33,562 nt of DNA from a virus (Duplodnaviria; Heunggongvirae; Uroviricota; Caudoviricetes). Positions within the stretch are counted from its first letter, which is position 1. Every line of letters begins with the position of its first letter. Below the pieces are notes generated by a model, which saw only the letters and a list, made by a program, of their open reading frames with translations, was not told the origin of the DNA and did no database searches. Positions 3,579 to 28,869 of this stretch are shown piece after piece. The position numbers were made by a program, and so were the translations under genes. The stretch is from IMG/VR virus record IMGVR_UViG_2850808358_000004; one strand, written 5' to 3'.

Positions 3579-3583
3579 TCACG

Positions 3584-11033: not shown

Positions 11034-11278
11034 GAGAGCAATTACCAGACACCGTGCCAGTACAGGAAATCAAAGAAAATATCAGGCAACAACTTCACGG
11101 ATTTTATATTACTTATGATTTGTGGCTGAAAAACGGAGCAAATCCAGACGGAATATTTTCGCGAAACTGTGGTTTATGCGCCAGCCTCTGGGATTATCTC
11201 GAATTAACGGGTGCTGATAAAGAAGCCGCACTGGAGCTATTGCACATTGATTTCAGAAATGCCGGGCGAACCGCATAG
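11030..11278 (+). CDS. Hypothetical protein, AT-rich (possible moron)
   Basis: 82 aa, ATGA overlap with upstream gene; lower GC than flanks. Confidence 0.4.
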   Translation: MREQLPDTVPVQEIKENIRQQLHGFYITYDLWLKNGANPDGIFSRNCGLCASLWDYLELTGADKEAALELLHIDFRNAGRTA

Positions 11279-11333: not shown

Positions 11334-11597
11334 TTACGCGCCATCACTGAGCAGAATATCCAGTGCCATTTGCCTTTCGTCTGGTTTAAGGCGCTGGAGC
11401 AATGCTTTAACGACACCATCAGTTTGCAGGTCACTGGGTGAAATCACGCGAAGATCGGAAAGATTGAGCGAAAAACGCATATTACAGTCAGAATTAGTGC
11501 AGGTGCAATAAACTACCGCCAGCGTTTTTGCGTCATCCTGCCATGCAGTTTTGCGTATAGCCGCCCGGCAGTGACACGCCGGACATTCAATTTTCAT
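11334..11597 (-). CDS. ogr: Ogr/Delta-family zinc-finger late-gene transcription activator
   Basis: MKIECPAC...(26 aa)...CTNSDCNMRF matches the Ogr/Delta CxxC-Xn-CxxxxC zinc-finger pattern; start taken at Met5 of ORF 11334..11609. Confidence 0.6.
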   Translation of the reverse strand: MKIECPACHCRAAIRKTAWQDDAKTLAVVYCTCTNSDCNMRFSLNLSDLRVISPSDLQTDGVVKALLQRLKPDERQMALDILLSDGA

Positions 11598-11659
11598 CAC
11601 ACCCGCCATAACCCCCCCACAATCTGACCGGTTGCAGGGGTAATATAGTCTTTTTCGGG

Positions 11660-12714
11660 TTATTTTTCATCAGCCAGCGCAGACACCACATTTTCCACAT
11701 CTTCCAGCGTAAAATTAAGGTGTAACGACGGGGGGATTTCGGGATCGCTGTTCACAGCCTGCATGAATTTACGGCAGACAGGTGTCACTTCATCCCGTCC
11801 ATAGGTTGTCCTTGCCTTATCGGGATCGCCAAGTCCGCTCGCATTTTGCGGGATAATACCGGCAAGACCAGCCGGAAAGCGGTGCGCCGTAAGAACATCC
11901 TGAGCGCTGATATTCTTCACATTTGAAAACTCATCTTTTTGCTGAATATCCCCAACCGGAATAATTTTAATCCCGTCCGGTTGCCCTTTTGGGATACTGA
12001 TAAACATGTTACGGAAATTCCCAAGCCCGTTACCGCTCTCTATTTTTTTACGTATAGCTTCTTCAGCCTCAACAGACATATTCGGGTCGGACGCGTACAT
12101 GATGAACCCCATATGCGCACCGTTGTGATAGTAGCGACGTCTGAAAATGGTCGCCTCACTGTTCAGTAACGCTGAATGAATACCACCGATATAATCAGGC
12201 AGTCCATAAATCTGCTGTCGCGGATCATGCATACGTAAAAACACAACATCAGACGGCGAATAGACCAGCGGCTCGCCCTCCTGTAACACGATAAAATCAA
12301 GTTGCTTGCTGCGACGCAGATACAAAGACGGTAATGGTGCCAGCGCCACCACCCGTCCCCACCCGTTACGGACCTTCAGAATGGCCACATCACCAAACAG
12401 CAGGTAGTCAAAGACAGCCATTTCCATCTGATCGGTCGTCAGTCCACCCCCCTGGTAGCTGGCACACACCATATTTTTGCGTGCATACAGTACGCCGCCA
12501 TGCTGGGCGTTAAGGTTCGGCAACTGCGCGAGCGCAAGTCTGTCTATTGGTAGTGTCCAGTAGTTGTAGCTACCGTTATACCAGACGTTGATGTATTCCG
12601 TGCCGGTAGTCAGTATCGGTTCCGGCTCCCAAAAGTGATAATATTGCCGCGTCCGGGAGTAAAATTTTCTGTCTGTGCCCGTTTACGCAGGCGTGCGCTT
12701 TTACGTTTACTCAT
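11660..12714 (-). CDS. Portal protein (P2 gpQ family), frameshift near 12620-12630
   Basis: ORF 11660..12523 contains QQIYGLPDY...LNSEATIFRRRYYHNGAHMGFIMY as in P2 gpQ; N-terminus MSKRKSARLRKRAQTENF from ATG 12714 is in a different frame and terminates; joining frames at a T4/G3 run restores ...IITFGEPEPILTTGTEYINVWYNG... Confidence 0.85.
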
Positions 12715-14533
12715 GCAGCCTTCCCGAATGCCCACACCGAGGGGCGGTCATATTCATAGTCGAGCGGTTCATTACAGACCGCGTGCGATATGGCAAAAAA
12801 TACGTCCGCGTGACCGGTCGTTTCGCTGCGTTCGGCGGCGAACGTCATTGCATTCTGACTGGCAGTCATTACACGGCGGATGGCCATAAATGCCAGCGGG
12901 ATATCGGCACGTTCTTTTGTCACCTCATCAACCGCATCTTTCACCCACTGGATACGTCGCCGCTCAATGAGGTCAATCATCTTAAGCACCAGTTTATTTT
13001 TATTATCAACACTGTAGTTAATCCCCATCACCTCACGCGGTGCGGAGCGTACCAGTTGATCATAAACACCCCGGCCAATACCCGTGATATCCACCCCGAT
13101 ATGCGTAAACCGGTAGCGTTTCATTAATTCTTCAATCTGCTTAACCTGCCAGGTGAAGTTAAGCCCCACCCACTGGTAGACAGCCAGCACGCGAAATTTT
13201 TCTTCAGGCTCAACAGGCGGGGCCACAATAACAAATGTTGAGTTATCACCCGTTCGTGACGGATCAAAACCACCCCACACCTCACGATTACCAAAAGGCC
13301 GTAATGCGGAGGGGTCGAAGTCCTGCCAGATGCCGAACTCAACCTCACATTTTTCAAGGTCTGAGAATTTAAATACTGTGTCGCGGGAGTCAGTGAACTC
13401 ACACATGTACAGCATGGCAAACGCCGTGGCGCTGTAGCGGTTACGCAGCTTCTCAATGTTAACTCTGGCACTGAGTCCCTTAGCGCACGCATCCTCCATT
13501 GTGATGACATAGCGCCAGATCCCGTCAGGGCAGACCTGTCCACCTTTACGCAATTCCTTGCTGGTCGGGAACTCCGCCGCCTTACGTTTCGGATCGTCGC
13601 CCTTCCATTCATCCCCTGTCCACAGCCTGTAAGCCTGGTGCGTTTTAGCGCTGGGGTTGAAAAATAGGTAATACGGAATTCGTCATGCGTCGCCATCGCT
13701 GACGCCACTTCATGCAGGCGGGCAAATTTCGGTATCCAGAAGACCTCATCCCCGTACAGGTCGCCACTGTAGGACTGCGCCGTATTGGGATTGGTCGCCA
13801 GAAAACGCAGTATCGCACCATTGCTGAGGCGAATCGGGTTGCCTTTAAGCTCGACACCAAAGAATTGCTGCGCAATACTGAGAATATAGAAACGGAAAAC
13901 TTCCGCCTGGGGTTTACTGGCGGAAAAGAATATCTGATTCTTGCCCGTGAGAACGGCCTTTTCAAACCCTTCCCATGCAAAATAGTAGGTAAATCCTTCC
14001 TGTCGCCCTTTCAGAATGAAGCGGAACAGTTCGTCGCCGTGCTCACGCACATATTGCTGATATTCAAACAGATGACCATTCGCTTTTTCATCAAATATTT
14101 CTTTTGTCAGTCCGCCGACATCATTTTTACGTAGTCGCTTCCTTTTTTTACCACCTTCGTCATTCCCTTCTTCACTGCTACCCTGTCGGCCATCATTGAC
14201 CACCACGCCGGTATTGACCATCGCCCGGATCTCTTCCATCCGTTCAGCATGTTTGTTCTTCTGCGCCATCAGCCTGACGTGCTGGAATATCAGGAAGCGC
14301 AGCTCTTCAAGCTCAAGCTCGCTTTTACCATCCTTGCAGGTCAGTCGTTCCACTCGCCGGGCGACAGCCACTTCCACCGACTCGGCTGGTAACATTTCAT
14401 TCCATTGCCCCCGGACAGCCCAGTTATAAACGGTACGCACAGGAAGCCCCAGCGTGGCCGCTATCTCTTTTGGTGTACTGAATTTCAGATACAGGGCGCG
14501 GGCAGCGTCCCTGACTTCTTCGGTATATTTCAT
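12711..14533 (-). CDS. Terminase large (ATPase) subunit, P2 gpP family, frameshift near 13570-13600
   Basis: Two overlapping ORF-track pieces in different frames (13124..14728 N-terminal, 12711..13553 C-terminal); start assigned to MKYTEEV at 14533; joined length about 606 aa; frames meet at ...ITYFSTPA / KTHQAYRLWTGDEW in T/C/A homopolymer runs. Confidence 0.85.
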
Positions 14534-14690: not shown

Positions 14691-15803
14691 ATGGCAAAGC
14701 AGAAATACACCACTGACTGGATATGCATAGCAACCGAAGGCTACGCCATCGACGGTCGCCCCATTACCCGCGAAATGATCCAGCAGGCCGCTGACAACTA
14801 CAGCACCGCCAGATACACAGCGATGATCTGGCCTAATCACCCCGTATACAGTCTTCAGGAGCGAGAATTTACCCCCAATCTGGGGCTTGTTTCCGAGCTG
14901 GCGGCTAAAGAAGACGCCGGAAGACTGCGCCTTATGGCGAAGCTGGAGCCTAACCAGGCGCTGGTTAACCTTAACGATCGCGGCCAGAAGCTCTTTACCT
15001 CGTGCGAGTTCTGGGAGAACTATGCCAACACCGGGCAAACCTATCTGTACGGGCTGGCAGCAACCGACAGTCCGGCAAGTCTGGGAACCCAGCGCATGGA
15101 AATCAAATCAGTGGAAAACAACACACAGGGCTCACGTCCGCAGTATGCCGCCGCTGGAAATATTGAAATGTTCAGTCTTGGGCGTCTGACGCTGGTCGCT
15201 GACACCCCAACAAACCATCATGAGGATAAATCCATGACTAAAGAACAGGCGAACCAGTTGCTAGCCCAGATTGTCACTCTGACGGCAAAAATTGACGCGC
15301 AGGCGAACACGCAACCACAGGCACAGCAACCCGCACCGGCGCAGCCCACGGCATCCGCAACAGCAGACACACAGCCAGTAACCGGGGATTTCAGCGCTCA
15401 CGCTAATCACGTTGCGGAGCTGAGTGAAAAGCTTTCCGTTGCCACTGACACACTGGCCATCAACCCGAAAGACGACACGGCACGCCAGAACTACACCACC
15501 GCCGTGACGGAGCTACAGACCGCACTTAACACCTTTACGGTGCAGCCACAGGATGCTGAAACCGCAAAACTCCAGGCACGTATCGCCGCCCGTAATGGCG
15601 GACAACAGCCAGCGCCAGCCGCAGCGCAGAATTTCAGTACCCGGAAGACGGAAAAAGATGATGAGGCCGACGCCGCCACACTGACAACGCTTACCAGTGC
15701 AATCGAAAATCTGAGCCAGCGTTTTTCGGTCATTGAAAGCCAGCGCACACCGACGCCGGGCGCAGCCCCCGGCGGACAACCCGCGCAGTTTGAGCCGCTG
15801 TAA
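14691..15803 (+). CDS. Capsid scaffolding protein (P2 gpO family) with expanded Q/A/P-rich linker
   Basis: MAKQKYTTDWICIATEGYAIDGRPI... and FWENYANTGQTYLYGLAATDSPASLGT match the gpO N-terminal domain; start taken at Met21 of the ORF-track entry. Confidence 0.8.
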   Translation: MAKQKYTTDWICIATEGYAIDGRPITREMIQQAADNYSTARYTAMIWPNHPVYSLQEREFTPNLGLVSELAAKEDAGRLRLMAKLEPNQALVNLNDRGQKLFTSCEFWENYANTGQTYLYGLAATDSPASLGTQRMEIKSVENNTQGSRPQYAAAGNIEMFSLGRLTLVADTPTNHHEDKSMTKEQANQLLAQIVTLTAKIDAQANTQPQAQQPAPAQPTASATADTQPVTGDFSAHANHVAELSEKLSVATDTLAINPKDDTARQNYTTAVTELQTALNTFTVQPQDAETAKLQARIAARNGGQQPAPAAAQNFSTRKTEKDDEADAATLTTLTSAIENLSQRFSVIESQRTPTPGAAPGGQPAQFEPL

Positions 15804-15850
15804 GCGGTCGTTGAGAAAAACAGACAAAAGGACCAACCGGAGAAAAACCA

Positions 15851-16900
15851 ATGGCCGCACAGATGTTATCACCACAGGCGCAAAAGTTTTTGCGTAATTA
15901 CGCCATTTCGATGGCAAAAGCCAATGGCGTATTTACAGCACAACAGTTTTTTTACCATCAGCCCACCACGTGAAACCCTGCTACGCGATGCCCTGATTGA
16001 GAATGCCGACCCGTTCATGGGCAAGATCACCGTCATGCTGGTCGAACAGCTTGTCGGCCAGGTAGTCAGTACCGGAATTCCGGGCTGTATACCGGGCGCA
16101 AGAAAGACGGACGCTTCAATAAAGCGCTGGGGAGTGAAGGCAACGAGTACAAGCTTTACGAAGTGGATTCCGGTTCATTCCTGGACTACACCACCCTGAC
16201 CAACTGGGCAAACGCAGGCACCGAAAACGAGTTCTATAACCGTCTTCAGGCGTTCTTTTACAAGTCAGTCACCAACGACCTGTTACGCGTGGCACTGAAC
16301 GGTACGCATGCCGCAGATGAAACCAATCCTGATACCTGCCCGAACGGGGAAGATATTCACCCGGGATGGCATCAGATTGTTAAAGCGCGCACACCAAAAC
16401 AGATCATTACTGACAAGGTCGTATTGAACCGTACAGGAACCGGGGCTGATTTTACGTCTGTTGATGCTATTGCCGCCGATGTAATTAATACCTGCATTCC
16501 ACCCGAATTCCGTCAACACCCGGATCTGGTTGTACTGGTATCACAGAACATTATCGCAGCAGATACGGTCAGTATGCTGAACCGCATCGACCGCCCGACA
16601 GAAAAAGTCGCCGCCCAGCTTATCAACCGTGAGATCGCCGGACGCAAGTCATTCAGTCCGCCATTTATGCCGGATAACCGCCTGGTTGTCACCACGCTCT
16701 GGAATCTGCATATGTACTTCCAGCGCGGAACACAGCAACGCCGTGCTGAATGGATTGATGACCGCAAACGCTTCGAAAACAACTGGCTGCGTATGCAGGG
16801 TTGCGCCGTGGAATATGACGCACTCTACGGTTCATTTGACAACATTGAACTGGCGGGACTGCCATCACCTGAACATGCGAAACCAAACCAGGTAGCATAA
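15851..16900 (+). CDS. Major capsid protein (P2 gpN family), interrupted by two frameshifts (about 15945-15951 and 16080-16090)
   Basis: Three consecutive frames: 15851 (MAAQMLSPQAQKFLRNYAISMAKANGVFTAQQFF), 15924..16199 and 16163..16900 (DPDLVVLVSQNIIAADTVSMLN...YFQRGTQQRRAEWIDDRKRFEN like gpN); shifts fall in a T7 run and a GGG run. Confidence 0.85.
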
Positions 16901-16911
16901 CGGTCTGACGT

Positions 16912-17580
16912 ATGCAGACTCCGGCGCAAAAGTTCAGAGCCAGACTGGCCGCGCAGCAGGCGATGGAACGCCACGAGGCACTGACCGTACGCGACAGTCT
17001 TCATCTGCAACTGGCGCAACTGGAAATCGACTGCAGGGCTGTGAGCAGTTGCGCCACCAACGCCGATCGTGTGGCATTCAAGCGTGAATCCCTGCTGCCG
17101 CGCTGGATGCCGACGATTGAGGCGTGGCTGCAAAGCGGCGAGGAGTACAAATACATCCCGTTTACCTGGTGCATCGTCTGGCTGTTTGATACCGGCGAAA
17201 TGGACAAAGCCCTGGAATGGGCCGATATCGCCATCGGGCAGAATCAACCCATGCCACCACGCTTTGACCGTGATTTGCCAACGTTCGTTGCCGATGAGGT
17301 CATGCAGTGGGCACAGATTCAGTTTGATAAAGGCCTTTCCGTCGAGCCCTATTTCAGCCGCGTGATGAGCCATATCGAAAAAGACTGGACACTGCACGAA
17401 GAGATAGTTGCCAGATGGTACAAATTCGCCGGTCTTAACCTGTTACGGGACAGCGATGGCAAACCGACAACCCCGGCCGCCATTTACGACGTGGCGAAAC
17501 TACGTAGCGCCGATGAGTGGATGGCCCGTGCGCACAGCACCACCCCAAAGCAGGTGTTCGCGCCATACGAAACAAAATAG
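16912..17580 (+). CDS. Terminase small (endonuclease) subunit, P2 gpM family
   Basis: 222 aa, position between capsid and head completion genes as in P2 ONML; assignment by synteny and size. Confidence 0.65.
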   Translation: MQTPAQKFRARLAAQQAMERHEALTVRDSLHLQLAQLEIDCRAVSSCATNADRVAFKRESLLPRWMPTIEAWLQSGEEYKYIPFTWCIVWLFDTGEMDKALEWADIAIGQNQPMPPRFDRDLPTFVADEVMQWAQIQFDKGLSVEPYFSRVMSHIEKDWTLHEEIVARWYKFAGLNLLRDSDGKPTTPAAIYDVAKLRSADEWMARAHSTTPKQVFAPYETK

Positions 17581-17716
17581 CCGCCCGTCTGCGCGCATTA
17601 CGGGCGGTATAACGAAAGCCCCACGGCTTCAGGCGGGCACGGTGAGGATGACACGCACAAGCGTCAGTCATGCCGCAGAACCGTTCGCCCGACCTGACCT
17701 ACACAGAGAATCAGTC

Positions 17717-18187
17717 ATGAACCTGAAACCAGGCTACAGCACAGACCAGAACACAGACACTGCTACAGGCATGCTTAAAAATGATGGCTTCTGGCCGGAT
17801 CTGGTCATGGCTGATTTTCGCAGAAGCCGAACTATCCCACTGGATATCCCTGCATCACTGGCAGAACAGGCGTTATTGTCTGCCGTCTTTGAGGTGAACA
17901 CCGCACTGACCGGTGTGAAATCCCGCTACGTAGTGCAGGGAATAGCGCAGGCGGCGGACGTGGAAGGCCCGCAACTTAACGGCGAAAGCGCCCTTTGCGC
18001 ACAGTACAAAAAAGCGGTCTTTGCCCGCGCCAAAGCCGATCTTCTCGGTGAGTTTACGGCGGTGAACACCCGCCACGCCGACAGCAATATCGACAGTAAT
18101 GACACCCGCGAAACCCTGCTTGCTGAAGCGGCCTTTGTGCTGCGTGCTATCCAGGGCGCAGGCCGTGTGGGAGTGTACATCTTATGA
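17717..18187 (+). CDS. Head completion/stabilisation protein (P2 gpL family)
   Basis: Start at ATG 17717 (MNLKPGY...), 156 aa; ORF-track entry 17408..18187 is extended upstream only because no stop intervenes. Confidence 0.65.
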   Translation: MNLKPGYSTDQNTDTATGMLKNDGFWPDLVMADFRRSRTIPLDIPASLAEQALLSAVFEVNTALTGVKSRYVVQGIAQAADVEGPQLNGESALCAQYKKAVFARAKADLLGEFTAVNTRHADSNIDSNDTRETLLAEAAFVLRAIQGAGRVGVYIL

Positions 18188-18663
18188 GCCAGTTCGACAG
18201 CCTTTATGCATATCTGCGGCAGGTGTTTGACATTTCCGTGTTTGACAATACCGGCTTTGATTCGTGGATGAGTGATATTCGTCTTTTGCCCGCAGAGAAA
18301 GACATGGGGCTTGGACAGATAAGAATGGGTATTCGCCAGTACAACGCCGTGTTCGACTGGCAGCGCTGGCCATGGCGTCAGGTTGACCCTGATTTGCTGT
18401 TATGCGCCCTGCTTGTCTGGCGGGACGAACAGGCTAATGACTACTACAGCCAGCTTGAGCTTGATGCGCCGGATGTCAACATCGAACCCACGGACGACAA
18501 CATTGCAGAAGTGACTGTCAGTATGCCGCTCGCTGACCCCATCATTCTGATCCCGGACGAGGCCGGTTTTATCATGATGGGCGGCATCCGTTACCGGCTG
18601 GATAAGCCAGAGATCTGGGTGGCAGAAAATATCACTGTATCCACCATCAGGGCAGGGAAATAA
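18184..18663 (+). CDS. Putative head-tail connector or tail completion protein
   Basis: 159 aa, ATGA overlap with gpL stop; acidic; assignment by position only. Confidence 0.4.
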   Translation: MSQFDSLYAYLRQVFDISVFDNTGFDSWMSDIRLLPAEKDMGLGQIRMGIRQYNAVFDWQRWPWRQVDPDLLLCALLVWRDEQANDYYSQLELDAPDVNIEPTDDNIAEVTVSMPLADPIILIPDEAGFIMMGGIRYRLDKPEIWVAENITVSTIRAGK

Positions 18664-18666
18664 ACA

Positions 18667-19395
18667 ATGGACATCTCCCTGCACGGCGAACTTAACCGGA
18701 CACAGCTTAAGCAGCTGCAGACAATGCTGGCCAACGGTGAGCTCCCCCCGGCAAAACAACAGCGTCTGCTGCAGCGTATCGCAAAACGCGGCGTTATTCC
18801 GGCCGCAAAGCGCCATGTTCGCGAACAAAAGAATGTTGATGGCAGCAGTTTTGCAGAACGCCGCTATGGCAACAGACCGCTGCTGAAGGGGCTCCCTAAA
18901 TTTCTGAAAGTGCACGACATGCCATCAGCGAAATCGGTGCGTATATACGCAGCAGGCAGGAGCTATCGCCAGCCCCACAACCACAGGGAAATCAGCGTGG
19001 GTGCAGTGGGATATATCCAGAGCCATGGCGTTACGTTCACAGTGAACGCATCGCAGCTGAAAACCGACGCGATGGAAAAAGCCAGCAAGGAACCCTGCTC
19101 CCGCCGTCAGGCGATAAAGCTGCGCAAGCTGGGCTATACGGTGAGCGGCAAAAAAAGGGGGACGCGCCGCAAACCATCAACGGCAGATATCCGGACGTCG
19201 CTCACGAAAGGGCAGGCAGGCGTGATTATCCGCAGCATGGAAGGCATACCATCCAAAAGCTGCTGGACGATAACCATCCCACCCCGTCAGTTCCTTGGTG
19301 TCAGTAACGAGGAATTTGCACGGATACTGTCCCGCCAGTTGCAGGGCATCAATTATGGCTGGCAGACAAAGCCGCAGGACATTAAGAGGAAATAA
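18667..19395 (+). CDS. Putative virion morphogenesis / tail completion protein
   Basis: 242 aa, basic; located between head completion and sheath-like genes. Confidence 0.4.
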   Translation: MDISLHGELNRTQLKQLQTMLANGELPPAKQQRLLQRIAKRGVIPAAKRHVREQKNVDGSSFAERRYGNRPLLKGLPKFLKVHDMPSAKSVRIYAAGRSYRQPHNHREISVGAVGYIQSHGVTFTVNASQLKTDAMEKASKEPCSRRQAIKLRKLGYTVSGKKRGTRRKPSTADIRTSLTKGQAGVIIRSMEGIPSKSCWTITIPPRQFLGVSNEEFARILSRQLQGINYGWQTKPQDIKRK

Positions 19396-19398
19396 CCC

Positions 19399-20523
19399 AT
19401 GACGTTTCCACAGGTCACAATTAATCAGCTCAACACCCACAGCGGAAGCAAGCGTGGGATCGCCTGCACCCTGCTGATGGTGGGCGAGCATACAAAAGCC
19501 ATTCTCCCGACACCGGTTACAGCACAAACCGATCTTGACTCGCTGTTAGGAACAAAGGATTCATTGTTACGCAGTAACGTGCAGGCGTTTCTGGATAATG
19601 CCGGACAAAATGCCATGATCTGGCTGGCAACCGTGCAGACACCCCAGCCTTCTGGTCAGACCCGAACGTGGGCTGATGTGGTTATGGATGCACAGGCCAC
19701 CCTCTCGGTGGAAGGCGTTGTCGTTGTTCGCGCTAACGCCTCAGGTAACGATATCGACAAAGCGCAGCAACTGCGCAGCGAACTCAATAACACCTTCCAG
19801 CGCTGGACATGGTTTATCCTGGCTGTTCGCGGCTGCGGAACAGGCGAGAAGTGGTCAGAATACGTCACCGTCATGACCGGACTACAGAAAGGCATTGCCG
19901 CTTACGCGGTGCAGCTTACCCCGATGCTGTTCGGCAATGAACCGGGGATACTGGCCGGTCGCCTTTGCAATCCATCAGTGACGATTGCTGATTCCCCCGC
20001 CCGTGTTGCAACCGGCGCACTGGTCAATATGGGCCGCAACGATAAACCGCAGGACAGCGACAAGCGCGAACTGGACATTGCCACCATCAGGGCCCTGAAC
20101 AGGGCGCGTTTCAGCGTACCAACGTGGTATCCCGACTACGAAGGTTACTACTGGGCCGACGGCGTCACGCTCGATGTGGACGGTGGCGATTATCAGGCTA
20201 TCGAATATCTGCGCGTTGCCGATGAAATGGCCCGTCAGGTGCGTTTGCTGGCTATCCCAAAAATCGCCAATCGCTCACTGAACTCCACCCCGGCAAGTGT
20301 GGCCGCGCACCAACAGCTTTTCGCGAAGCCCATGCGCGACGGCGCAAAGAGCCTGAAAATCAACGGCACGGTATTCCCTGGCCTTTGCATGTCACCGCAC
20401 GACGGCGACGTAAAAATCTCATGGCCGGAAAAAGACAAAGTGCAGATTGCGATCGTGGTTCGCCCGTATAACTGCCCGAAAGAAATCACCATCAGCATCA
20501 TGCTGGACGAAAGCGGAGAGTAA
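19399..20523 (+). CDS. Putative tail sheath protein
   Basis: 374 aa, immediately followed by a 153-aa tube-sized gene and upstream of chaperone/tape measure; assignment by size and order, not by recognised motif. Confidence 0.45.
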   Translation: MTFPQVTINQLNTHSGSKRGIACTLLMVGEHTKAILPTPVTAQTDLDSLLGTKDSLLRSNVQAFLDNAGQNAMIWLATVQTPQPSGQTRTWADVVMDAQATLSVEGVVVVRANASGNDIDKAQQLRSELNNTFQRWTWFILAVRGCGTGEKWSEYVTVMTGLQKGIAAYAVQLTPMLFGNEPGILAGRLCNPSVTIADSPARVATGALVNMGRNDKPQDSDKRELDIATIRALNRARFSVPTWYPDYEGYYWADGVTLDVDGGDYQAIEYLRVADEMARQVRLLAIPKIANRSLNSTPASVAAHQQLFAKPMRDGAKSLKINGTVFPGLCMSPHDGDVKISWPEKDKVQIAIVVRPYNCPKEITISIMLDESGE

Positions 20524-20526
20524 CCC

Positions 20527-20988
20527 ATGAACACCGAACGCATCAGTGGTATGAGCTTTGACACGTCATTTAATGGCCGCATCGTTCACGTAAAAACCGC
20601 CACCCTTGATATTACCGACAACACCAAAGCCATTCAGGAGCGCGGTGTACCTGATGGCTGGGTACGCGGCGACGTGGAAGCCGGCGGTGAAATTGAACTG
20701 GATACCGTTAACTTCCAGCTTCTTGGTGAAGCCGCGCGTGAAGCAGGGAGCTGGCGCGACATCGAAGAAGCCGACTTTCTCTTCTTTGCCCGTGCAGCAA
20801 AGACAGAACTCAGGGTGGAAGCCTTTGGTTGCAAACTGCTGATCAGTAACCTGCTGAATATCGACAGCAAGGGCGGTGACAACATAAGCCATAAAATCAA
20901 ATTTATGGTGACTTCGCCGGAGTTCGTCAAAATTGACGGTGTTCCGGTTCTCAGCGCCACCGATGTTCGGGACATCATGAACCAATAG
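20527..20988 (+). CDS. Putative tail tube protein
   Basis: 153 aa, follows sheath-like gene; by synteny. Confidence 0.4.
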   Translation: MNTERISGMSFDTSFNGRIVHVKTATLDITDNTKAIQERGVPDGWVRGDVEAGGEIELDTVNFQLLGEAAREAGSWRDIEEADFLFFARAAKTELRVEAFGCKLLISNLLNIDSKGGDNISHKIKFMVTSPEFVKIDGVPVLSATDVRDIMNQ

Positions 20989-20996
20989 GAAAGACA

Positions 20997-21335
20997 ATGC
21001 AAAGCACCCCCCACAACTGGAGCGACTGGCTGGCGATAATCAAAGACTGGTTACGTGGTGATATCCCTCTTGACAGTCTGCTGATGACTGCCGTCATTGC
21101 AGCACTCAGAGTGTTTTACACAGGCCGCAGCTGGCGTCGTCTTTTGCTTGAGGTGCCGTTGTGTTGCCTGCTGGCCGTGGCGGCATTCACCCTCATTAAG
21201 CCGGTCCCCGTCGCATGGCTGACCGAAGACTGGCGCGTCGGTATCGGTGCCGCAATTGGCCTTATTGGTGTTGAACATATCCGGGCACTGGGTGTGTTCA
21301 TCACAAAGAAATTTGCAGGGAAAAGTGACGAATGA
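20997..21335 (+). CDS. Holin (three predicted TM segments)
   Basis: 112 aa with hydrophobic segments LLMTAVIAALRVFYTG, LLLEVPLCCLLAVAAFTLI, VGIGAAIGLIGV and charged C-terminus; directly upstream of the lysozyme. Confidence 0.6.
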   Translation: MQSTPHNWSDWLAIIKDWLRGDIPLDSLLMTAVIAALRVFYTGRSWRRLLLEVPLCCLLAVAAFTLIKPVPVAWLTEDWRVGIGAAIGLIGVEHIRALGVFITKKFAGKSDE

Positions 21336-21775
21336 AAATTTCAGACAACGGGCTGGCCGCACTTAAACGCGAAGAAAACTGCAAACTGACCGCTTACCCC
21401 GATCCGCGCGGCGTATGGACCATTGGTACAGGTCACACAGGAAAGGTTGATGGTGTCGCAGTTCACAAAGGCATGACCATCACCCAGGACACCGCCGACA
21501 GACTGCTACGCGACGATCTGTCATGGGTGGAGCACTGCATCGCTGAACGGGTAACAGTTCCGCTGAACCAGAGTCAGTATGACGCGTTGTGTAGCCTGAT
21601 TTTCAATATCGGCGCTGACGCTTTTATCGGTTCCACCGTTCGCCGTCAGTTAAACGCCGGCAACTACACCGCCGCCGCTGATGCTTTCCTGAAATGGAGC
21701 CGCGCAGGCAGTAACCCGACAATTCTGGCCCCGCGTCGCGGACGTGAGCGGGCAATGTTTCTGGGACAGAGGTAA
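21332..21775 (+). CDS. Endolysin, GH24 phage lysozyme (muramidase)
   Basis: Catalytic-triad-like E ... D ... T spacing in KREENCKLTAYPDPRGVWTIGTGHTG; 147 aa. Confidence 0.85.
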   Translation: MKISDNGLAALKREENCKLTAYPDPRGVWTIGTGHTGKVDGVAVHKGMTITQDTADRLLRDDLSWVEHCIAERVTVPLNQSQYDALCSLIFNIGADAFIGSTVRRQLNAGNYTAAADAFLKWSRAGSNPTILAPRRGRERAMFLGQR

Positions 21776-21781
21776 GGCCAC

Positions 21782-22246
21782 ATGAAACGCGCAACACTCG
21801 CCTTTATCGTCTTCATGGTCGTCGCCGTGGCCGTGCTCGGCTTCACAGCTGACTACTGGCACAACCGCTTCACCAGGGCAGAAAAAGCCCGCCAGAAAGC
21901 CGTAAATCTTGCCGACACCCGACAGCAGACCATTGACGACATGACACTGCGTCAGCGCCAGAACGCCGCGCTTGATGCGAAATACACAAAGGAGCTCGCC
22001 AATGCAAAAGCTGAATCCGAAAAGTTACGCGCCGATCTTGCTTCTGGCCGTCGCCGGTTGCAGCTCCACGCCGTCTGTATGCCCGCCGCCACGCGTGATA
22101 CCACCGCCACCGGCTCAACTGATGCAACCGCCGCCCGACTTACTCCGGACGCTGAACGGGATTATCAGCATCTCAGAGCCGAAGCGAAAGCCGTCGTTGC
22201 ACAAGTGAACGGCCTGCAACAGTACATTACTGAACAATGTCATTAA
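21782..22246 (+). CDS. i-spanin (Rz-like)
   Basis: N-terminal TM anchor LAFIVFMVVAVAVLGF followed by charged coiled-coil region; contains the embedded Rz1 frame. Confidence 0.65.
   Translation: MKRATLAFIVFMVVAVAVLGFTADYWHNRFTRAEKARQKAVNLADTRQQTIDDMTLRQRQNAALDAKYTKELANAKAESEKLRADLASGRRRLQLHAVCMPAATRDTTATGSTDATAARLTPDAERDYQHLRAEAKAVVAQVNGLQQYITEQCH
22002..22208 (+). CDS. o-spanin (Rz1-like lipoprotein) embedded in the +1 frame of the i-spanin gene
   Basis: MQKLNPKSYAPILLLAVAGCSS lipobox signal peptide, proline-rich mature part; AAGGAG RBS 7 nt upstream of ATG 22002. Confidence 0.6.
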   Translation: MQKLNPKSYAPILLLAVAGCSSTPSVCPPPRVIPPPPAQLMQPPPDLLRTLNGIISISEPKRKPSLHK

Positions 22247-22276
22247 AAAATGGCACCACTCACCGGGGAAAATAGC

Positions 22277-22549
22277 ATGAAAGACGAAAATACCACCATC
22301 ATCACCCTGACCGTCGCAGGCGAGGACATTCGCTTCGCCCCGACCGAAGCTGTCTACAACAAGTTCGTGAATGAAATAACGATGGATAACAAGGTGGCGC
22401 CAGCCAAAAACTACCTGATGCGCTGTGTACACCCGGAAGACAAAGAGAAACTGGAGAAGCTCATTCACCGCCCGGGAGCAGCCCTTCAGATGGCAGCAAA
22501 ACTCAATGAAGATTTTGCCGTCAATCTGGATATCACCGTAAAAAAATAA
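22277..22549 (+). CDS. Tail assembly chaperone (P2 gpE / lambda gpG analogue); a -1 frameshift product would extend to 22737
   Basis: Small acidic protein directly upstream of the tape measure gene; ends at an A7 run; alternative start ATG 22250 in the ORF track. Confidence 0.55.
   Translation: MKDENTTIITLTVAGEDIRFAPTEAVYNKFVNEITMDNKVAPAKNYLMRCVHPEDKEKLEKLIHRPGAALQMAAKLNEDFAVNLDITVKK
22540..22546 (+). other. Candidate programmed -1 ribosomal frameshift slippery heptamer A_AAA_AAA
   Basis: Seven consecutive A at the last two codons of the chaperone; the -1 frame stays open for 63 codons (KKIKAALSGIERNGYAQYLVLRRHWLPDGEDTPEDIAAAVWLDNRYFENMSIAVNNGIARAFKGG) and stops at TAA 22735-22737, overlapping the tape measure ATG. 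Confidence 0.5.
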
Positions 22550-22736
22550 AGGCGGCACTGTCCGGCATTGAGCGCAACGGCTACGCGCAATATCTGGTAT
22601 TACGCCGCCACTGGCTACCGGATGGCGAGGACACACCGGAAGACATTGCCGCTGCGGTCTGGCTGGACAACCGTTATTTCGAAAACATGAGTATTGCCGT
22701 CAATAACGGCATTGCGAGAGCATTTAAAGGTGGGTA

Positions 22737-24818
22737 ATGGCTGCTGAACTTGATTTTACGCTAAGTCTGGTTGATAAGCTGACGAGACCCTTAAAACAGG
22801 CGCAATCGGCTGTGACCGGATTTGCTGACAAGGCAACAGCCGACTTTAAACGTCTCGGTTTTGGTGTGGCCGGGTTATGGGGGGCTGCTCAGGGAATAAA
22901 AGGACTGGTCAACCCCGCCCGCGACATGGAAGCCGCGCTGGCCGAAGTCAGCTCGCTGGATGTGGCAAATAAAACACTCGATCAGCTGCGTAAAACTTCA
23001 CAGACGTTTGCCATTAACTACGGCGAAAGCGCCAGCAATTTCGTCCGCAGCGCCTACGATATCCAGTCCGCCATCGCAGGACTTCAGGGTGACGAACTGC
23101 CAAAATTTACTGAAGCATCCGCCATTCTCGCCAAAGCCACCAAATCAGACACGGCCACCATTACTAACTATATGGGCACCATGTACGGTGTTTTTAAAAA
23201 TACCGCAGAGAAGATGGGGCGCACGCAGTGGGTTGAACAAATTGCCGGGCAGACCGCAACCGCCGTTCAGGTGTTCAAAACTACCGGTAATGAAATGTCT
23301 GCTGCCTTTACTGCGCTGGGTGCCAACGCGCAGGCAATGAAGGTATCTGCCGCTGAACAGTTCGCCGTACTGGGACAGCTCCAGTCCACCATGTCAGGCA
23401 GCGAGGCGGGAACCAAATATAAATCATTCCTGGCGGGGATTGGGAATGCGCAAAAAGTGCTGGGGCTGAACTTTACCAACCGGGACGGCAGTGCCAGAAG
23501 CATTACCGGTATCATCGACCTGATTAAAGGAAAGTTTGGCGATCTGTCAAAAGTGGCAGATGCAGACCTGCTGAAAAAAGCCTTTGGCAGCGATGAAGCG
23601 GTGTCCATGATTAAACTACTGGCCGGAGATGTTGACGGGCTGAAACGGAACATCAATACATTAGGTAACATCAAAGGCATGGATAAAGCCATCGAAATGG
23701 CGAAAAAGATGGTTGACCCGTGGGATCAGGTTAATTCTTTACTGGAGCAGGTTCGCGTCAGCATTGGTCTGCGGCTCGATCCCGTCTTTGCCCCGTTCCT
23801 GCAAAAAATCATCACCGGCGGGAAAGCCTTCATGAAATGGCTGGATACGTTCCCCAATATTGCCCGCTGGCTGGGATATATCACTGCAATGACCCTCGCC
23901 TTTGCCGCAGCAGGGGCGCTTGCCAGTATCACGATGGGGGCCTTCGGCTTTATCATGACCGGGCTCAGCGGAATTGCTGGCGTGCTGAAAGGCGCATGGA
24001 AAGGACTAATCTTCACCCTGGATTTATTACGCCCCTCCCTGCTTTCAACCCGTCTTGGCCTGATGGGGCTATGGATTCAGGAAAAAGCCGTCTGGGTGTG
24101 GTCAAAGCTGGTCGCTCTTTGGGCAGGGATCTGTAAAGCAGCGATCGTAGCCTGGAACGTAGTGTTACGTGCGGGCGCGGTTGCAATGCGCCTGTGGGGC
24201 GTGGCGACGGCATTCGCAGGCGGTGCGCTTCAACTCCTGATAAGTCCCATAACCCTGATTATTCTCGCCATTGCCGCACTTGCCGTAGGGATCTGTCTGG
24301 CTATCAAATACTGGGACAGTATTAAAGCCGCCATCATGGACACGGAAGCTTTCAGTGCCCTGCTAAAAGTCATTAACGCTGTGGTGGGCTGGTTTGATGA
24401 TGCATGGAACAGCATTAAAGCCGGATGGGACAATCTGACGAACTGGTTTAAAAATTTCTCGCTGGCCGACACATTCGGCAATATCACAGCTGGAATTGGC
24501 AAGCTCTTTGACGGCATATGGGATTCCATTAAGAGCGCCTTTACCGGGACATGGAACTGGATAGCAGAGAAGCTCAACAAAATCCCCGGTGTCAATATCA
24601 GCACCGCACAACAGACCGTCGCACCGACACCCGCCCCGGAGCTTATCACTGGCAACCGTAGCGCCGCCATCCAGGGCGGGCCGGTAAGTCACCAGATAAG
24701 CAACAACCGGGGCGACAAAGTCACCAATAACAACGTTAAGCAGGATATCACACTGCACGTTGACACCCTGGCGACACCGGGACAACTGGCGGAATACAGC
24801 GAACTGGCAGCGGGGTGA
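22737..24818 (+). CDS. Tail tape measure protein
   Basis: 693 aa; alpha-helical N-terminal half and hydrophobic/Gly-Ala-Trp-rich C-terminal segments typical of tape measure proteins; preceded by chaperone with frameshift site. Confidence 0.85.
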   Translation: MAAELDFTLSLVDKLTRPLKQAQSAVTGFADKATADFKRLGFGVAGLWGAAQGIKGLVNPARDMEAALAEVSSLDVANKTLDQLRKTSQTFAINYGESASNFVRSAYDIQSAIAGLQGDELPKFTEASAILAKATKSDTATITNYMGTMYGVFKNTAEKMGRTQWVEQIAGQTATAVQVFKTTGNEMSAAFTALGANAQAMKVSAAEQFAVLGQLQSTMSGSEAGTKYKSFLAGIGNAQKVLGLNFTNRDGSARSITGIIDLIKGKFGDLSKVADADLLKKAFGSDEAVSMIKLLAGDVDGLKRNINTLGNIKGMDKAIEMAKKMVDPWDQVNSLLEQVRVSIGLRLDPVFAPFLQKIITGGKAFMKWLDTFPNIARWLGYITAMTLAFAAAGALASITMGAFGFIMTGLSGIAGVLKGAWKGLIFTLDLLRPSLLSTRLGLMGLWIQEKAVWVWSKLVALWAGICKAAIVAWNVVLRAGAVAMRLWGVATAFAGGALQLLISPITLIILAIAALAVGICLAIKYWDSIKAAIMDTEAFSALLKVINAVVGWFDDAWNSIKAGWDNLTNWFKNFSLADTFGNITAGIGKLFDGIWDSIKSAFTGTWNWIAEKLNKIPGVNISTAQQTVAPTPAPELITGNRSAAIQGGPVSHQISNNRGDKVTNNNVKQDITLHVDTLATPGQLAEYSELAAG

Positions 24819-24821
24819 CAA

Positions 24822-25160
24822 ATGAGTACGAAATCACTTTATATCGACCTGCTCATTACTGACGGCGATCTTACGTTCAACTCCGCCAGTGAGCCGGTCT
24901 TGTGTGACAACCGCCAGAGTATTGCTCAGGACATGATTCACGCCCTGATTGAAAGTGGTCTGCCCTGTCGTCTGATTGCGGAGAACAGCCCCACACTCAG
25001 GGCCGACCTGTTCACGCAAATGGTGATACTCCTGGAGGAGGATGAACGCCTCATTCCCGGCTCCGTATTTATTGACGAAGAGCAACGCGGCCAGCTCCTT
25101 GTTACCGCCGATACCTACGATTTTGGTCAGTTAAGCCAGGGGATGCGCTATGCAGAATAA
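24822..25160 (+). CDS. Putative small baseplate protein (W/gp25-like position)
   Basis: 112 aa acidic protein directly upstream of the baseplate J-like gene. Confidence 0.4.
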   Translation: MSTKSLYIDLLITDGDLTFNSASEPVLCDNRQSIAQDMIHALIESGLPCRLIAENSPTLRADLFTQMVILLEEDERLIPGSVFIDEEQRGQLLVTADTYDFGQLSQGMRYAE

Positions 25161-26328
25161 TATCGACTTCAAAAACATACTGCGCGAAAGCGGAATGCCG
25201 GTTGATGAACAGACCGTACGTGACACCCTGCAACAGGTGGCAGATGATGAAAAACTCATCACCAATACGTCGCGCATGTCGCCATTCTGGCGGCTGATTC
25301 AGTTGCTGGTTATCACGCCGTATGTGTGGATTGTTGACACACTGGCTGACAATGTACTGCATAATCTGTTTCTGATGACTGCCAGAGGGCCGTTCGTTGA
25401 CCTGTTCGCTGCCGCCCTCAAGCTTACCCGCAAGGAAGCCACGCGTGCGATCGGTAAAATCATTTTTACCAAAAACAACCAGAATGACAGTGTGACCGTA
25501 CCGGCTGGCACACTGATTCAGACGGAGCGTATTAACGGTGTGATTTATTCCATGGCGACCCGCGAGCAGGTAATTATCCCCGCAGGCACGCAAAGCACCC
25601 TTATTGATGTGATCGCCACCGACAGCGGTACGGCATTCAATCTGGCACCAGGCTATTACCAGATACTCCCCAAAGCGATTAACGGAATTGCGTCTGTACG
25701 TAACGGTGATAACTGGCTGACCATACCGGGCGCAAACCGCGAAAGTGACGACGAACTGAAAGATCGTTGCCGTAACCAGTTTAACCTTGCCGGCAGTTAT
25801 CACACTGACGCAGTTTACCGCAGCCTGATAGCTGCACAGGCCGGACTGACCATCGATCGCATCTTCTTTTTACATGACGCCCCGCGAGGACCTGGTACAA
25901 CTAATGCCTACCTGCTGCTGGATACCGGGGTTATTTCGCAACCCTGGGTTGACAGCGTGAATGATTACATCATGGCACAGGGACATCACGGCCACGGCGA
26001 TGATATGCGTTGTTTTGCCATGCCGGAAACCCGCCACGATCTGGCGGTTACGGTGTATGTTGAAAACCTTTCCAATATCAGCAAAAACGATATCGACGCT
26101 CTGAAATCAGGCACTGAAAACCTGATTCGTTGTGCATTCCGTGAAAACAGTAACTACGACGTAACCCGCACATGGCCATACAGTCGCTTTTCATTCTCGC
26201 AACTGGGACGCGAACTGCATGACACCTTTCCTCTGGTGGGATCCGTGACGTTTTCCCTTGAGGATATCATCAGCGATCTGAACGTACCCCGCCTGAACAC
26301 ACTGACAGTTGAGGTGAAGAATGCCTGA
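25150..26328 (+). CDS. Baseplate J-like protein (P2 gpJ / Mu gp47 family)
   Basis: 392 aa, position between small baseplate protein and I-like/tail fiber genes; family assignment from overall sequence character. Confidence 0.7.
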   Translation: MQNNIDFKNILRESGMPVDEQTVRDTLQQVADDEKLITNTSRMSPFWRLIQLLVITPYVWIVDTLADNVLHNLFLMTARGPFVDLFAAALKLTRKEATRAIGKIIFTKNNQNDSVTVPAGTLIQTERINGVIYSMATREQVIIPAGTQSTLIDVIATDSGTAFNLAPGYYQILPKAINGIASVRNGDNWLTIPGANRESDDELKDRCRNQFNLAGSYHTDAVYRSLIAAQAGLTIDRIFFLHDAPRGPGTTNAYLLLDTGVISQPWVDSVNDYIMAQGHHGHGDDMRCFAMPETRHDLAVTVYVENLSNISKNDIDALKSGTENLIRCAFRENSNYDVTRTWPYSRFSFSQLGRELHDTFPLVGSVTFSLEDIISDLNVPRLNTLTVEVKNA

Positions 26329-26893
26329 TAAATCACCGGACATTAAGTTGCCGTCATGGCTGAATCGCGGCGATGTGCTCCGCCTGAAAAACACCTTTAT
26401 CCGTTTCTGGGGAAAGGTGCACGACTGGGTAACATGGCCACTGAGCCAGACCGACCCACTGACATGTGCGGAATCCATTCTGAACCTGACAGCCTGGCAA
26501 TATGATATAGCCCGTTTTGACGGCGAACCGCTCACGCTGTACAGAAAGCGTGTCAAATATGCCTTTATCAACGCACAGGACGCGGGCAGCGTGGCGGGAT
26601 TCAGGGCAATTTTTGAACGACTGGGGATCGGTTATGTGGAGATTCAGGAGCGCCAGCCAGGCACAGACTGGGATGTTGTTCTTTTGCGCCTGACAGACAA
26701 CCAGATCTCAGAAAATACAACATTACTCAATCAGATAATTCGCCAGTACGGTCGCACCTGCCGCCGTTACCATCTTCAGATAATCACATCCACGGATTGT
26801 GTTATCGGACACGGATACTGGCATGGCAGCTATCACTATTTTTATGCACCGGAGATGAAAAATGACCCAGAGCGCTATCACTTCAGCATTTGA
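26321..26893 (+). CDS. Putative baseplate/tail protein (P2 gpI-equivalent position)
   Basis: 190 aa between J-like and tail fiber genes. Confidence 0.5.
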   Translation: MPDKSPDIKLPSWLNRGDVLRLKNTFIRFWGKVHDWVTWPLSQTDPLTCAESILNLTAWQYDIARFDGEPLTLYRKRVKYAFINAQDAGSVAGFRAIFERLGIGYVEIQERQPGTDWDVVLLRLTDNQISENTTLLNQIIRQYGRTCRRYHLQIITSTDCVIGHGYWHGSYHYFYAPEMKNDPERYHFSI

Positions 26894-28868
26894 GCGCCTG
26901 AAAGCGCAGGAAGCCGCAGGCGGCAACCGTATCATCATTGATCAGTTTGTATTTGCAAATATCCCGGATCTGAACATTGCCGACACGCCGTCTGAAAACG
27001 AACCATTGCCCCCCGATGCACAGATAGTTCACCGCCAGAACGTTGATCGCAACGGAATGGTAAATGAGAACACCGTCGCCTACTCCGTTACCCTGCCGGA
27101 GTCCACGGGTGATTTTACTTTTAACTGGCTGGGTCTGGTAAGCAGCACCACAAATACACTTTGTATGGTGGTATATCTTCACCCTCAGAAAAAAATAAAA
27201 ACCGCAGACGGCAAACAGGGTAATACCCTGATTTATTCTGAAATTATGGAATACGCCGGAGCCAGCGCCGCAACCGGCATCACCACGCCAGTAAGCACCT
27301 GGCAGATTGATTTTACGGCACGGCTTCACGGCATGGACGAGGCCACCCGCAAAGCGGCGCTGGATATCTACGGGCCTGGCCTGTTCTTTAATAACGCCTT
27401 TAAACTCACCGCTCAGGCTACCGGGCAGGCGACCTTCGCGCCGGGTATTGCCTATCTGCGCGGATTACGTGTGGAGCTGGATGAACAAGGCACACTGACA
27501 TACGCCACCGGAATTTCACAAACTGTTTATGTTGACGCGGCATTAACCGGTACCCTGACCGGGGAAAATAAAGCCATATTCAGCCTGACGAGTCAGAAAA
27601 CAGCCGACTATACCGACAGTTCAGGATTTGCCCATTATGTCGAACCCATCGCCACAATATCAGACAGTGGCGAGATCACCGATATACGAAAAACCCGCAA
27701 ACCATTAAATGACCGCCTTGATGGCGAATACCTGACCCGTAACGGGAACCTGAAAGAAATTGCTGACAAAGGTGAACAGGCCCAGTCTGATGCCAGAAAG
27801 CATATGGGCCTCGGCGACAGCGCCACCCTTAATGTTGGCACCGCGCAGGACACTGTAGCCGCAGGTGACGACATCCGCATCACAGGAGCGCTGCAAAAAA
27901 ATCAGAACGGAGCAGATATTCCCGATAAACCGCTGTTTATCCAGAACGTTGGTTTACAGGAAACGGTAAACAAGGCTGATAACGCTGTCCAAAAGACAGG
28001 CGATACCTTGTCCGGTGGACTGACTTTTGAAAACGACTCAATCCTCGCCTGGATTCGGAATACTGACTGGGCGAAGATTGGATTTAAAAATGATTCGGAT
28101 GCAGACACCGATTCCTACATGTGGTTTGAAACGGCGGATAACGGTAATGAATATTTCAAATGGAGACACCGCCTCGCTGGCGGCCGGGTTAAAGACCTGA
28201 TGAATCTCAAATGGGATACACTAAATATTCTGGTTAATGCCGTCATTAATGGTTGTCTTGGAATTGGTACGACGAATGCGTTAGGTGGAAGTTCAATCGT
28301 TTTAGGAGATAACGATACCGGGTTTAAACAAAATGGCGATGGTCTGCTTGATGTTTATGCGAATGGACAGCATGTATTTCGTTTTCAGAATGGCGTGGCT
28401 ATTGCTTTTAAGAATATTCAGGCCGGAACTGCCAGAAAATTCACGTTATCCAGCGCCAACAACTCCACGAAAAATGCAGCGTTTTGTTTGTGGGGTAATC
28501 CATCCAGGCCTGTTGTTGCAGAGCTTGGTGATGATTCAGGCTGGCATTTTTTCAGCCAGAGGAATACAGATAACAGCATCACGTTCGCCGTAAACGGACA
28601 GGTAATTCCGTTAAATTACGGAAACTTCGATGCCCGCTATAAACATCGAACTGAGGGGGTACAGGATGTGCGGTATGGCCATGAAATGTATTACAACCCT
28701 GGCAGCAACACCGTTTCATGGACGTTTCGCTCACCTTCGGGACACGGGCTGTCAGGGATATCGATATCGGATACCGGCCGTAACTCAGCGGATAACGTCA
28801 ACGGTGTGTATTACCGACCGCTGCAAAAACTGATTAATGGCACCTGGTATAACGTAGCGAGTATTTAA
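26862..28868 (+). CDS. Tail fiber protein (P2 gpH-like, with conserved C-terminal receptor-binding region)
   Basis: 668 aa; C-terminal half ([30 protein letters not shown]...[11 protein letters not shown]) resembles the conserved distal tail-fiber region of coliphages; followed by a fiber assembly gene. Confidence 0.85.
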
Positions 28869-28869
28869 T

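Follow-up and report, generated by a model that had tools for sequence, protein, structure and literature searches.

A Peduoviridae prophage at btuC-ihfA with a canonical HP1-type late gene order and a P88-like early region

The window analysed here, a 33,562-nucleotide (nt) stretch of viral DNA (IMG/VR record IMGVR_UViG_2850808358_000004), is very probably a prophage of the HP1 subgroup of the Peduoviridae that lies between btuC and ihfA in an Escherichia coli-like chromosome and that carries its late genes in the canonical HP1-type layout. An original prediction had read the order of the tail genes, with lysis genes embedded among them (the flagged region, 18184-22246), as a sign of modular recombination in this phage. 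That reading is not borne out, as described genera share the order gene for gene. Genes were assigned by open reading frame (ORF) calling, Pfam and PHROGs, and the predicted succession itself (connector-like genes, sheath, tube, lysis genes, chaperone, tape measure, baseplate, fibre and a terminal hub block) is present as stated, tightly packed on the + strand. The late genes are as follows.

11334..11609, - strand: Ogr/Delta-like late activator (PF04606; RefSeq annotation in the copy of E. coli CFSAN029787, L001)
11660..12714, - strand: portal, gpQ-like (frameshift at 12627)
12711..14533, - strand: large terminase, gpP-like (frameshift at 13652)
14691..15803, + strand: capsid scaffold, gpO-like
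15851..16900, + strand: major capsid protein, gpN-like (indels at 15947 and 16081)
16912..17612, + strand: small terminase, gpM-like (PF05944; indel at 17542)
17717..18187, + strand: head completion protein, gpL-like (PF05926)
18184..18663, + strand: gpR-like tail terminator (PF06891, E 3.7e-13; phrog_65; hhalign to the P2 R profile, P 91.6)
18667..19395, + strand: gpS-like tail completion protein (phrog_26, E 9e-19; weak PF05069, a family carried by its relatives; hhalign to the P2 S profile, P 96.7)
19331..19398: joint between head/neck and tail (switch at about 19372)
19399..20523, + strand: tail sheath, DUF2586, HP1 orf23 family (PF10758, E 1e-113; phrog_907 'tail sheath', E 6e-125)
20527..20988, + strand: tail tube, HP1 orf24 family (PF10772 Phage_HP1_Orf24, E 2e-54)
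20997..21335, + strand: holin, lambda S family (PF05106, phrog_126)
21332..21775, + strand: endolysin, P22 gp19-type lysozyme (PF00959)
21782..22246, + strand: Rz i-spanin (PF03245, phrog_13)
22002..22208, + strand: Rz1 o-spanin lipoprotein, embedded in Rz in the +1 frame (PF06085)
22250..22737, + strand: tail assembly chaperone (PF10963; ORF to 22549, then a -1 frame extension)
22737..24818, + strand: tape measure (PF10145)
24822..26893, + strand: baseplate genes DUF2590, Baseplate_J and gpI-like (Tail_P2_I)
26862..29397, + strand: tail fibre and fibre assembly protein (P2/Mu/P1-like from about 27930)
29597..32478, + strand: terminal block of an orf33-like gene, HP1_ORF34 (PF25759) and a 562-residue hub/spike of the HP1 orf35 family (phrog_2258, E 5e-196)

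The head genes are arranged in the P2 style, with portal and large terminase leftward and scaffold, capsid, small terminase and gpL rightward, which is also the arrangement of HP1 orf15-20. In the annotated record of HP1 (Hpunavirus; NC_001697), the same genes follow one another from the ogr equivalent and the portal (orf15) to the hub (orf35): R-like and S-like genes, sheath (orf23), tube (orf24), a holin-lysozyme-spanin set, chaperone (orf26), tape measure (orf27), baseplate genes (orf28-30), the fibre and its chaperone, and orf33-35. The families PF10758, PF10772 and PF25759 are common to HP1 and the window, and the Pfam names of the latter two (Phage_HP1_Orf24 and HP1_ORF34) are those of HP1 ORFs. 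The features of the HP1 subgroup are present in the window, namely gpL followed by R-like, S-like, DUF2586 sheath and PF10772 tube genes, and then chaperone, tape measure, DUF2590, Baseplate_J, I-like protein, fibre, fibre chaperone, orf33, HP1_ORF34 and hub. The late order is likewise identical in the annotated records of ESSI2_ev239 (Evevirus), vB_YenM_324 (Tresduoquattuorvirus) and SI7 (Irrigatiovirus), which together with ESSI-2 are the classified phages closest to the window. The order recurs in six Salmonella prophages (L016-21) and in four prophages (Ewingella and Acerihabitans; L009-12) of species-representative Enterobacterales genomes. In all of these, the lysis genes occupy the slot between tube and chaperone that the cassette at 20997-22246 occupies in the window. 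The original prediction had allowed that a described genus with exactly this order would make it ordinary; since HP1 and three other ICTV genera carry it, the order is ordinary and not mosaic. The arrangement was very probably inherited from an HP1-like ancestor and not made by recombination in this phage.

Against this common order stand differences in content. HP1 has another host and only 25-58% amino acid (aa) identity to the window, a PF16080 holin, an unrelated spanin and a distant early region, with Rep at 31% aa identity. SI7, ESSI2_ev239/ESSI-2 and vB_YenM_324 have no nucleotide-level similarity to the window, carry a PF04550 holin with a Peptidase_M15_4 endolysin, and have other early regions.

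The contrast with P2 that had been drawn for the window is correct: in P2, gene X and the lysis genes (Y, K and lysA/B/C) lie between L and R-S, and FI/FII come after H-G. This late organization, in which V-W-J-I-H-G also precede FI-FII-E-T-U-D and sheath and tube are of the PF04984/PF04985 type, is absent from the window when order is compared with P2, 186, phiCTX, PHL101 and P88. The window shares with P88 and P2 the head gene order and the families of GpA, Ogr, R, S, J, I and the fibre N-terminus, but differs from them in the position of the lysis genes, the order from V to D and the sheath and tube families, and its head proteins are only 25-39% identical to theirs. 'HP1-like viruses' and 'P2-like viruses' are already distinguished in the literature, which describes the former as having six capsid genes in the P2 order and other structural genes largely dissimilar to those of P2 (PMC2771037). 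A rearrangement of another kind was observed in P88 and in a prophage of E. coli E300082 (L008, 17267-26295; L022, 25416-34433), where the block of sheath, tube, E, T and U is inverted relative to P2 and adjoins a DNA invertase and a duplicated fibre cassette.

The relationships of the structural proteins were judged by pairwise identity only, and not by a tree, with the intact head genes of the CFSAN029787 copy standing in for the frameshifted genes of the window. Against SI7, ESSI2 and YenM324, head proteins are 44-69% and tail proteins 34-62% identical in aa sequence (portal, 62-69%; large terminase, 56-63%; sheath, 49-53%; baseplate J, 58-62%), and against HP1 the corresponding ranges are 25-51% and 26-58% (sheath, 50%; tube, 52%). 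Against P2, head proteins are 25-39% identical (portal, 35%) and tail proteins have no BLAST match except for a fragment of gpI and the fibre and its chaperone; against P88, head proteins are 26-34% identical and the tail matches only in the tape measure (29%) and the fibre and its chaperone. Against the classified HP1-type genera, head and tail show no discontinuity; they have travelled together through most of the history of this lineage. The window had been described as having P2-type head and replication modules. For replication this stands, given 87-92% nt identity to P88 (see below), and for the head it does not, given the 44-69% identity to members of the HP1 subgroup versus 25-39% to P2.

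The original prediction amounts to a P2-type head and replication backbone that recently gained a foreign tail module, for example a Mu-like one, together with a lysis cassette, making the phage a novel hybrid. Such a history could account for a head gene order that is that of P2, for a replication region close at the nucleotide level to that of a P2-order phage, and for tail proteins most of which have no BLAST match in P2. It is nonetheless very unlikely: the combination of this head with this tail already exists in HP1 and at least three other genera, with the same gene order throughout, the head proteins are nearer to those of the HP1-type genera than to those of P2, and the joint between early and late genes lies upstream of ogr and portal and not between head and tail. 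As to a Mu-like origin of the tail, similarity to SfMu and D108 was seen only in the C-terminus of the fibre and in its chaperone (the comparison with Mu did not proceed module by module), and the gene order of the tail block is that of HP1-type phages.

An older event is a different matter. Compared between the two subgroups, tails are far less alike than heads, a disparity that Hardies et al. put down to a paralogous tail module having replaced the original one in ancient times (PMC10612066). According to this scenario, a phage ancestral to either the HP1 or the P2 subgroup swapped in an anciently diverged paralogous contractile-tail module, and the resulting mosaic would be about as old as the subgroup and common to all of its members. 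The same disparity is seen here, in that head proteins retain 25-39% identity to P2, yet neither BLAST nor shallow hhalign comparison detects sheath, tube, the W-like protein, orf33/34 or hub. However, homology to the P2 counterparts can still be recognized for R, S, the tape measure and I, as local hhalign of HP1-type versus P2-type profiles (5-7 sequences) linked these proteins with P of 75-99.5, and Baseplate_J and the fibre N-terminus belong to the same Pfam families as in P2. Since these proteins are homologous to those of P2, faster divergence together with internal rearrangement may also explain the tail, and we regard ancient replacement as a serious candidate that falls a little short of an even chance. 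The hhalign comparisons left sheath, tube, chaperone, DUF2590, J, orf33/34 and hub without a link to P2, with profiles that are too shallow to decide between homology and replacement. Whatever its nature, the event that set the tails apart dates to the root of the subgroup and not to this phage.

Genuine and fairly typical modular exchange is visible in this phage only as breaks of identity against close relatives, not in the gene order, and one such joint lies upstream of ogr and portal. The window is a complete prophage cut-out, with its left end directly after the btuC start codon and its right end at the hok/gef stop codon, and the same btuC-ihfA site holds a P88-like prophage in E. coli E300082. 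The features of its early part are the following.

1234..2210, - strand: integrase (PF00589, PF24624), split into ORFs 1234-1626 and 1614-2210; intact at 978 nt in E300082
2259..2570, - strand: helix-turn-helix (HTH) immunity-repressor-like gene (PF01381), within the integrase and immunity block (1-3310)
Early operon, rightward: DUF4761, Dam-type methylase, DUF4406, Ash-like protein and GpA-type replication endonuclease
8086..10605, + strand: GpA-type replication endonuclease (PF05840, E 9e-128), P88-like to about 10195
10195..11266: early/late recombination zone, where P88-like similarity ends (10195-10224) and HP1-type late similarity starts (11266)

Positions 2977-3310, 7123-7713 and 8434-10195 are 87-92% identical in nt sequence to phage P88 (Xuanwuvirus), whose late genes have the P2-type layout, and the hok end (33263-33562) is 85% identical to it. 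Relative to the P88-like, P2-order prophage at btuC-ihfA, identity is 94% over 1-3310 and 89% over 7111-10224. The replication endonuclease is 78% (aa) and 91% (nt) identical to that of P88, compared with 30-37% (aa) to those of P2, HP1 and SI7. The similarity to P88-like elements stops at 10195-10224, and similarity to the HP1-type late blocks of Salmonella and E. coli starts at 11266. In the window, a P88/Xuanwuvirus-like region for integration, immunity and replication is joined to an HP1-type late block at 10.2-11.3 kb, between 10195 and 11266.

It could be argued that this chimera is an artefact of assembly or prophage extraction in which two neighboring or collapsed prophages were fused. 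Many homopolymer indels in the window suggest sequence of low quality, and P88-like prophages use the same btuC-ihfA site. However, CFSAN029787 and five other complete genomes carry the same junction from rep to the late genes, with 95.7% identity over 2992-11270 and 99.6% from 11266 on, and the window contains a single set of late genes flanked by ends (int and hok) that are both P88-like. An artefact is therefore extremely improbable. Six of 5426 complete E. coli genomes, moreover, contain the flagged region at 100% identity, and for this reason it is not an artefact either. In CFSAN029787, whose intact copy (NZ_CP011416, about 79.9-115.4 kb) has a late region 99.6% identical to that of the window, an IS600 and a pair of HTH/PIN-domain genes (L001, 9819-13013) are located exactly at the joint (window about 11266-11270); the window is without them. 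A further observation concerns the left part of the element: a query of positions 1-18183 matched all 5426 complete E. coli genomes even though only a handful carry the prophage, which may be attributable to a short btuC-proximal chromosomal stretch (about 1-190) that includes a terminator-like hairpin. Between this end and the integrase, two genes on the - strand (193-1231) encode a coiled-coil protein (DUF1640 in relatives) and a protein of 166 residues. The pair is kept in P88-like E. coli prophages, including those of O157:H7, and may represent cargo genes.

Prophages of this lineage are rare in E. coli (the six complete genomes above), are present in Shigella and are common in Salmonella enterica; copies of the sheath are 99-100% identical in E. 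coli and Shigella and form a large family at 86-91% identity in S. enterica. The Salmonella prophages share with the window the gene order and the lambdoid lysis cassette, but their Rep proteins are only 33-34% identical (aa) and their fibre C-termini differ. They are of two types. A-type prophages (L019-21; L019 is GCA_015908425 AAXSRZ010000002) match the window continuously over 11266-27964 at 85-87% nt identity (L019 and L020), and differ from it by an extra gene for a 117-residue protein and a diverged tape measure. B-type prophages (L016-18; L016 is GCA_027238865 DALPMM010000007) have another head/neck block and match only 19331-27873, at 86% nt identity (L016): aa identity to the window is 32-48% for ogr, portal, terminases, scaffold, capsid, gpL, R and S, and 84-93% from the sheath onward. 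In the alignment, the switch falls at about 19372, within the last roughly 24 nt of the S-like gene and the ribosome-binding site of the sheath gene. The B-type head is itself of the HP1 type, with large terminase and capsid 50-55% and 46-53% identical to those of enterobacterial HP1-type genera versus 39% and 28% to those of P2.

Recombination between head and tail in the flagged interval, as had been proposed, is thus supported to the extent that a joint exists at about 19372, but both partners are of the HP1 type, and R and S segregate with the head. We tentatively suggest, with somewhat less than even confidence, that in enterobacterial HP1-type prophages the genes from sheath to hub form one block and ogr, head genes, gpL, R and S another, which reassorts as a unit relative to the first, the joint lying exactly at the S/sheath boundary. 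R and S proteins that are only 34% identical between the two versions would then work with sheath and tube proteins that are 89-93% identical.

Exchange is not confined to this boundary. The tape measure of the window is 89% identical (aa) to that of the B-type (L016) and 55-59% to those of the A-type (L019 and L020), pointing to an exchange within a single gene, relative to the A-type, of the N-terminal and middle part of the tape measure (about 22858-24014). From about 27930, the fibre and its chaperone (27930-29411) are 80-91% identical in nt sequence to P2 H/G, Mu/D108 S/U, P1 and P88, and the C-terminal half of the fibre and the chaperone are 65% and 88% identical in aa sequence to P2 H and G. 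This is a familiar host-range cassette; the window has no invertase or inverted alternative cassette. Both the central part of the tape measure and the fibre's C-terminal half with the fibre chaperone are further swapped segments.

The lysis cassette embedded in the tail genes had also been taken as a sign of recombination. The slot itself is conserved across HP1-type genera and offers no such sign, but its content in this lineage, a lambdoid set, is a non-orthologous replacement. All components of a lambdoid holin, endolysin and Rz/Rz1 cassette are recognized (PF05106, PF00959, PF03245 and PF06085). The lysozyme is 65-66% identical (aa) to gp19 of P22 and ES18, and the translated Rz1 has a lipobox (LLAVAG|C) and a proline-rich mature part. 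The cassette resembles those of P22, ES18 and lambda in its S-family holin, gp19-type lysozyme and Rz with a fully embedded Rz1 lipoprotein; it differs in that it lies inside a myovirus tail operon and not downstream of a lambdoid Q and late promoter, and in that DNA similarity amounts to only about 67% over part of Rz. Its products presumably work together as holin, endolysin and spanins in the standard manner. The content of the slot varies among HP1-type phages, with three unrelated cassettes in different genera: in HP1, a holin of family PF16080, a lysozyme of family PF00959 and an unrelated spanin; in ESSI2, SI7 and the Ewingella prophages, a holin of family PF04550 together with an M15 peptidase; and in an Acerihabitans prophage, another lysozyme. 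In the present lineage, the slot is filled by a lambdoid S, gp19 and Rz-Rz1 cassette, and since holin and lysozyme are 86-91% identical (aa) to those of both Salmonella types, the cassette predates the exchange between A- and B-type and the spread between E. coli and Salmonella. The extra gene of A-type Salmonella prophages, which has no Pfam match, lies between lysozyme and Rz (L019, 13118-13471; L020 and L021, 13121-13474) and is absent from the window (21762-21775) and from B-type relatives.

Gene spacing suggests that the lysis genes would be part of an Ogr-dependent late tail transcript. The tube and the lysis genes are 8 nt apart, and the lysis genes and the chaperone 3 nt; throughout the flagged region, neighboring genes either overlap or are separated by 3-8 nt, and the + strand shows no convincing terminator there. 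Co-transcription is proposed because of these short distances and the absence of such a terminator, and the structure of the late operon is likewise deduced from spacing only. The orf33-like gene is preceded by a gap of 200 nt, as would fit a separate terminal operon, although no promoter motif was found in that gap, nor was a motif common to it and the divergent P/O promoter region. Sites of the P2 Ogr type (TGT-N12-ACA) were found nine times versus 8.7 expected, none of them in the expected intergenic regions.

The assignment of the tube is supported by its predicted fold. An AlphaFold2 model of the product of 20527..20988, built from an alignment of 26 sequences, reached a predicted local distance difference test score (pLDDT) of 78 and a predicted template modelling score of 0.71, and its best matches in the PDB are mostly tubes of contractile systems (diffocin CD1364, phages 812, phiCD508, A-1(L), Pam3 and XM1, AFP, PVC and Hcp1). 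When sheath, tube and hub were compared with PDB chains by sequence and by profile, sheath and tube had no significant match and the hub had only weak VgrG/Pvc8/Afp8 OB-fold matches (E 0.1-0.35). The chaperone ORF ends in GTA AAA AAA TAA and contains the slippery heptamer A AAA AAA at 22540-22546, beyond which 63 more codons are open in the -1 frame, up to a stop on the start codon of the tape measure (TAATG). RefSeq annotates only a short 'DUF6890' ORF at this extension, which is probably reached by a programmed -1 frameshift in a conserved chaperone arrangement like that of P2 E/E'.

Several points weigh against the interpretation developed here. First, the sheath model reached a pLDDT of only 38, because the homologs supplied were all near-identical (86-100%), and the sheath could be linked neither to P2 FI by shallow profile comparison nor to any PDB chain by sequence or profile search. 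Its assignment draws on phrog_907, the RefSeq naming of HP1 orf23, its position upstream of the tube and a reported HHpred result for the HP1 orf23-family sheath (PMC10612066), and should be read as putative. Second, scans for sigma-70 promoters and terminators performed at chance level and identified no late promoters or terminators. Third, the identity profiles show where the joints lie and do not tell which lineage is the recombinant in any exchange; statements on the timing of the exchanges and on the viability of the prophage are provisional. Fourth, integrase, portal, both terminase subunits and capsid are frameshifted in the window, and this copy is defective if the lesions are real. 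Compared with CFSAN029787 and E300082, single-base homopolymer indels are located at 1621 (integrase; CCC versus CCCC), 12627 (portal), 13652 (large terminase), 15947 and 16081 (capsid; +1 and -1, 134 nt apart), 17542 (small terminase) and 32629. This pattern looks like sequencing error, with real prophage decay as the alternative.

Among classified phages, no close relative of the prophage was found. A tblastn search with the sheath returned 76 phage records, all below 60% identity and the best at 53% (aa), headed by ESSI-2-like phages of Escherichia and Cronobacter, Yersinia vB_YenM_324, Haemophilus HP1/HP2 and Salmonella SI7/SW3, and also including Pasteurella F108, Aeromonas phiO18P and many Vibrio phages. 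A scan of genome contigs with this single sheath protein returned only four loci, at 53-54% identity; the close relatives in Salmonella and Shigella were found through the protein database. Among 50,697 phage records, megablast found matches to the window only in portions of the early region, in the fibre with its chaperone, and at the hok end. The ICTV genus criterion is about 70% genome-wide nucleotide identity, a level that no classified phage reached in this search. Given that sheath identity is at most 54% in every phage record and that similarity at the nucleotide level is confined to exchanged cassettes, the prophage probably represents an unclassified lineage at the level of a new genus.

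The value of these observations is mainly corrective, and none of them would surprise a phage genomicist: since the Peduoviridae have two long-established late-gene layouts, departure from the P2 order is no sign of hybrid origin. The joints mapped here nevertheless provide material for the study of module exchange in temperate myophages, of the replacement of lysis genes within a fixed slot, and of the divergence that is tolerated at the interface between tail completion proteins and sheath. If the recombinants are viable, the unit of exchange would not be 'head versus tail', as assembly pathways suggest, and if the joints are as described, the two subgroups of the Peduoviridae would constitute one recombining gene pool in E. 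coli and Salmonella, against the view that this family shows little reassortment.

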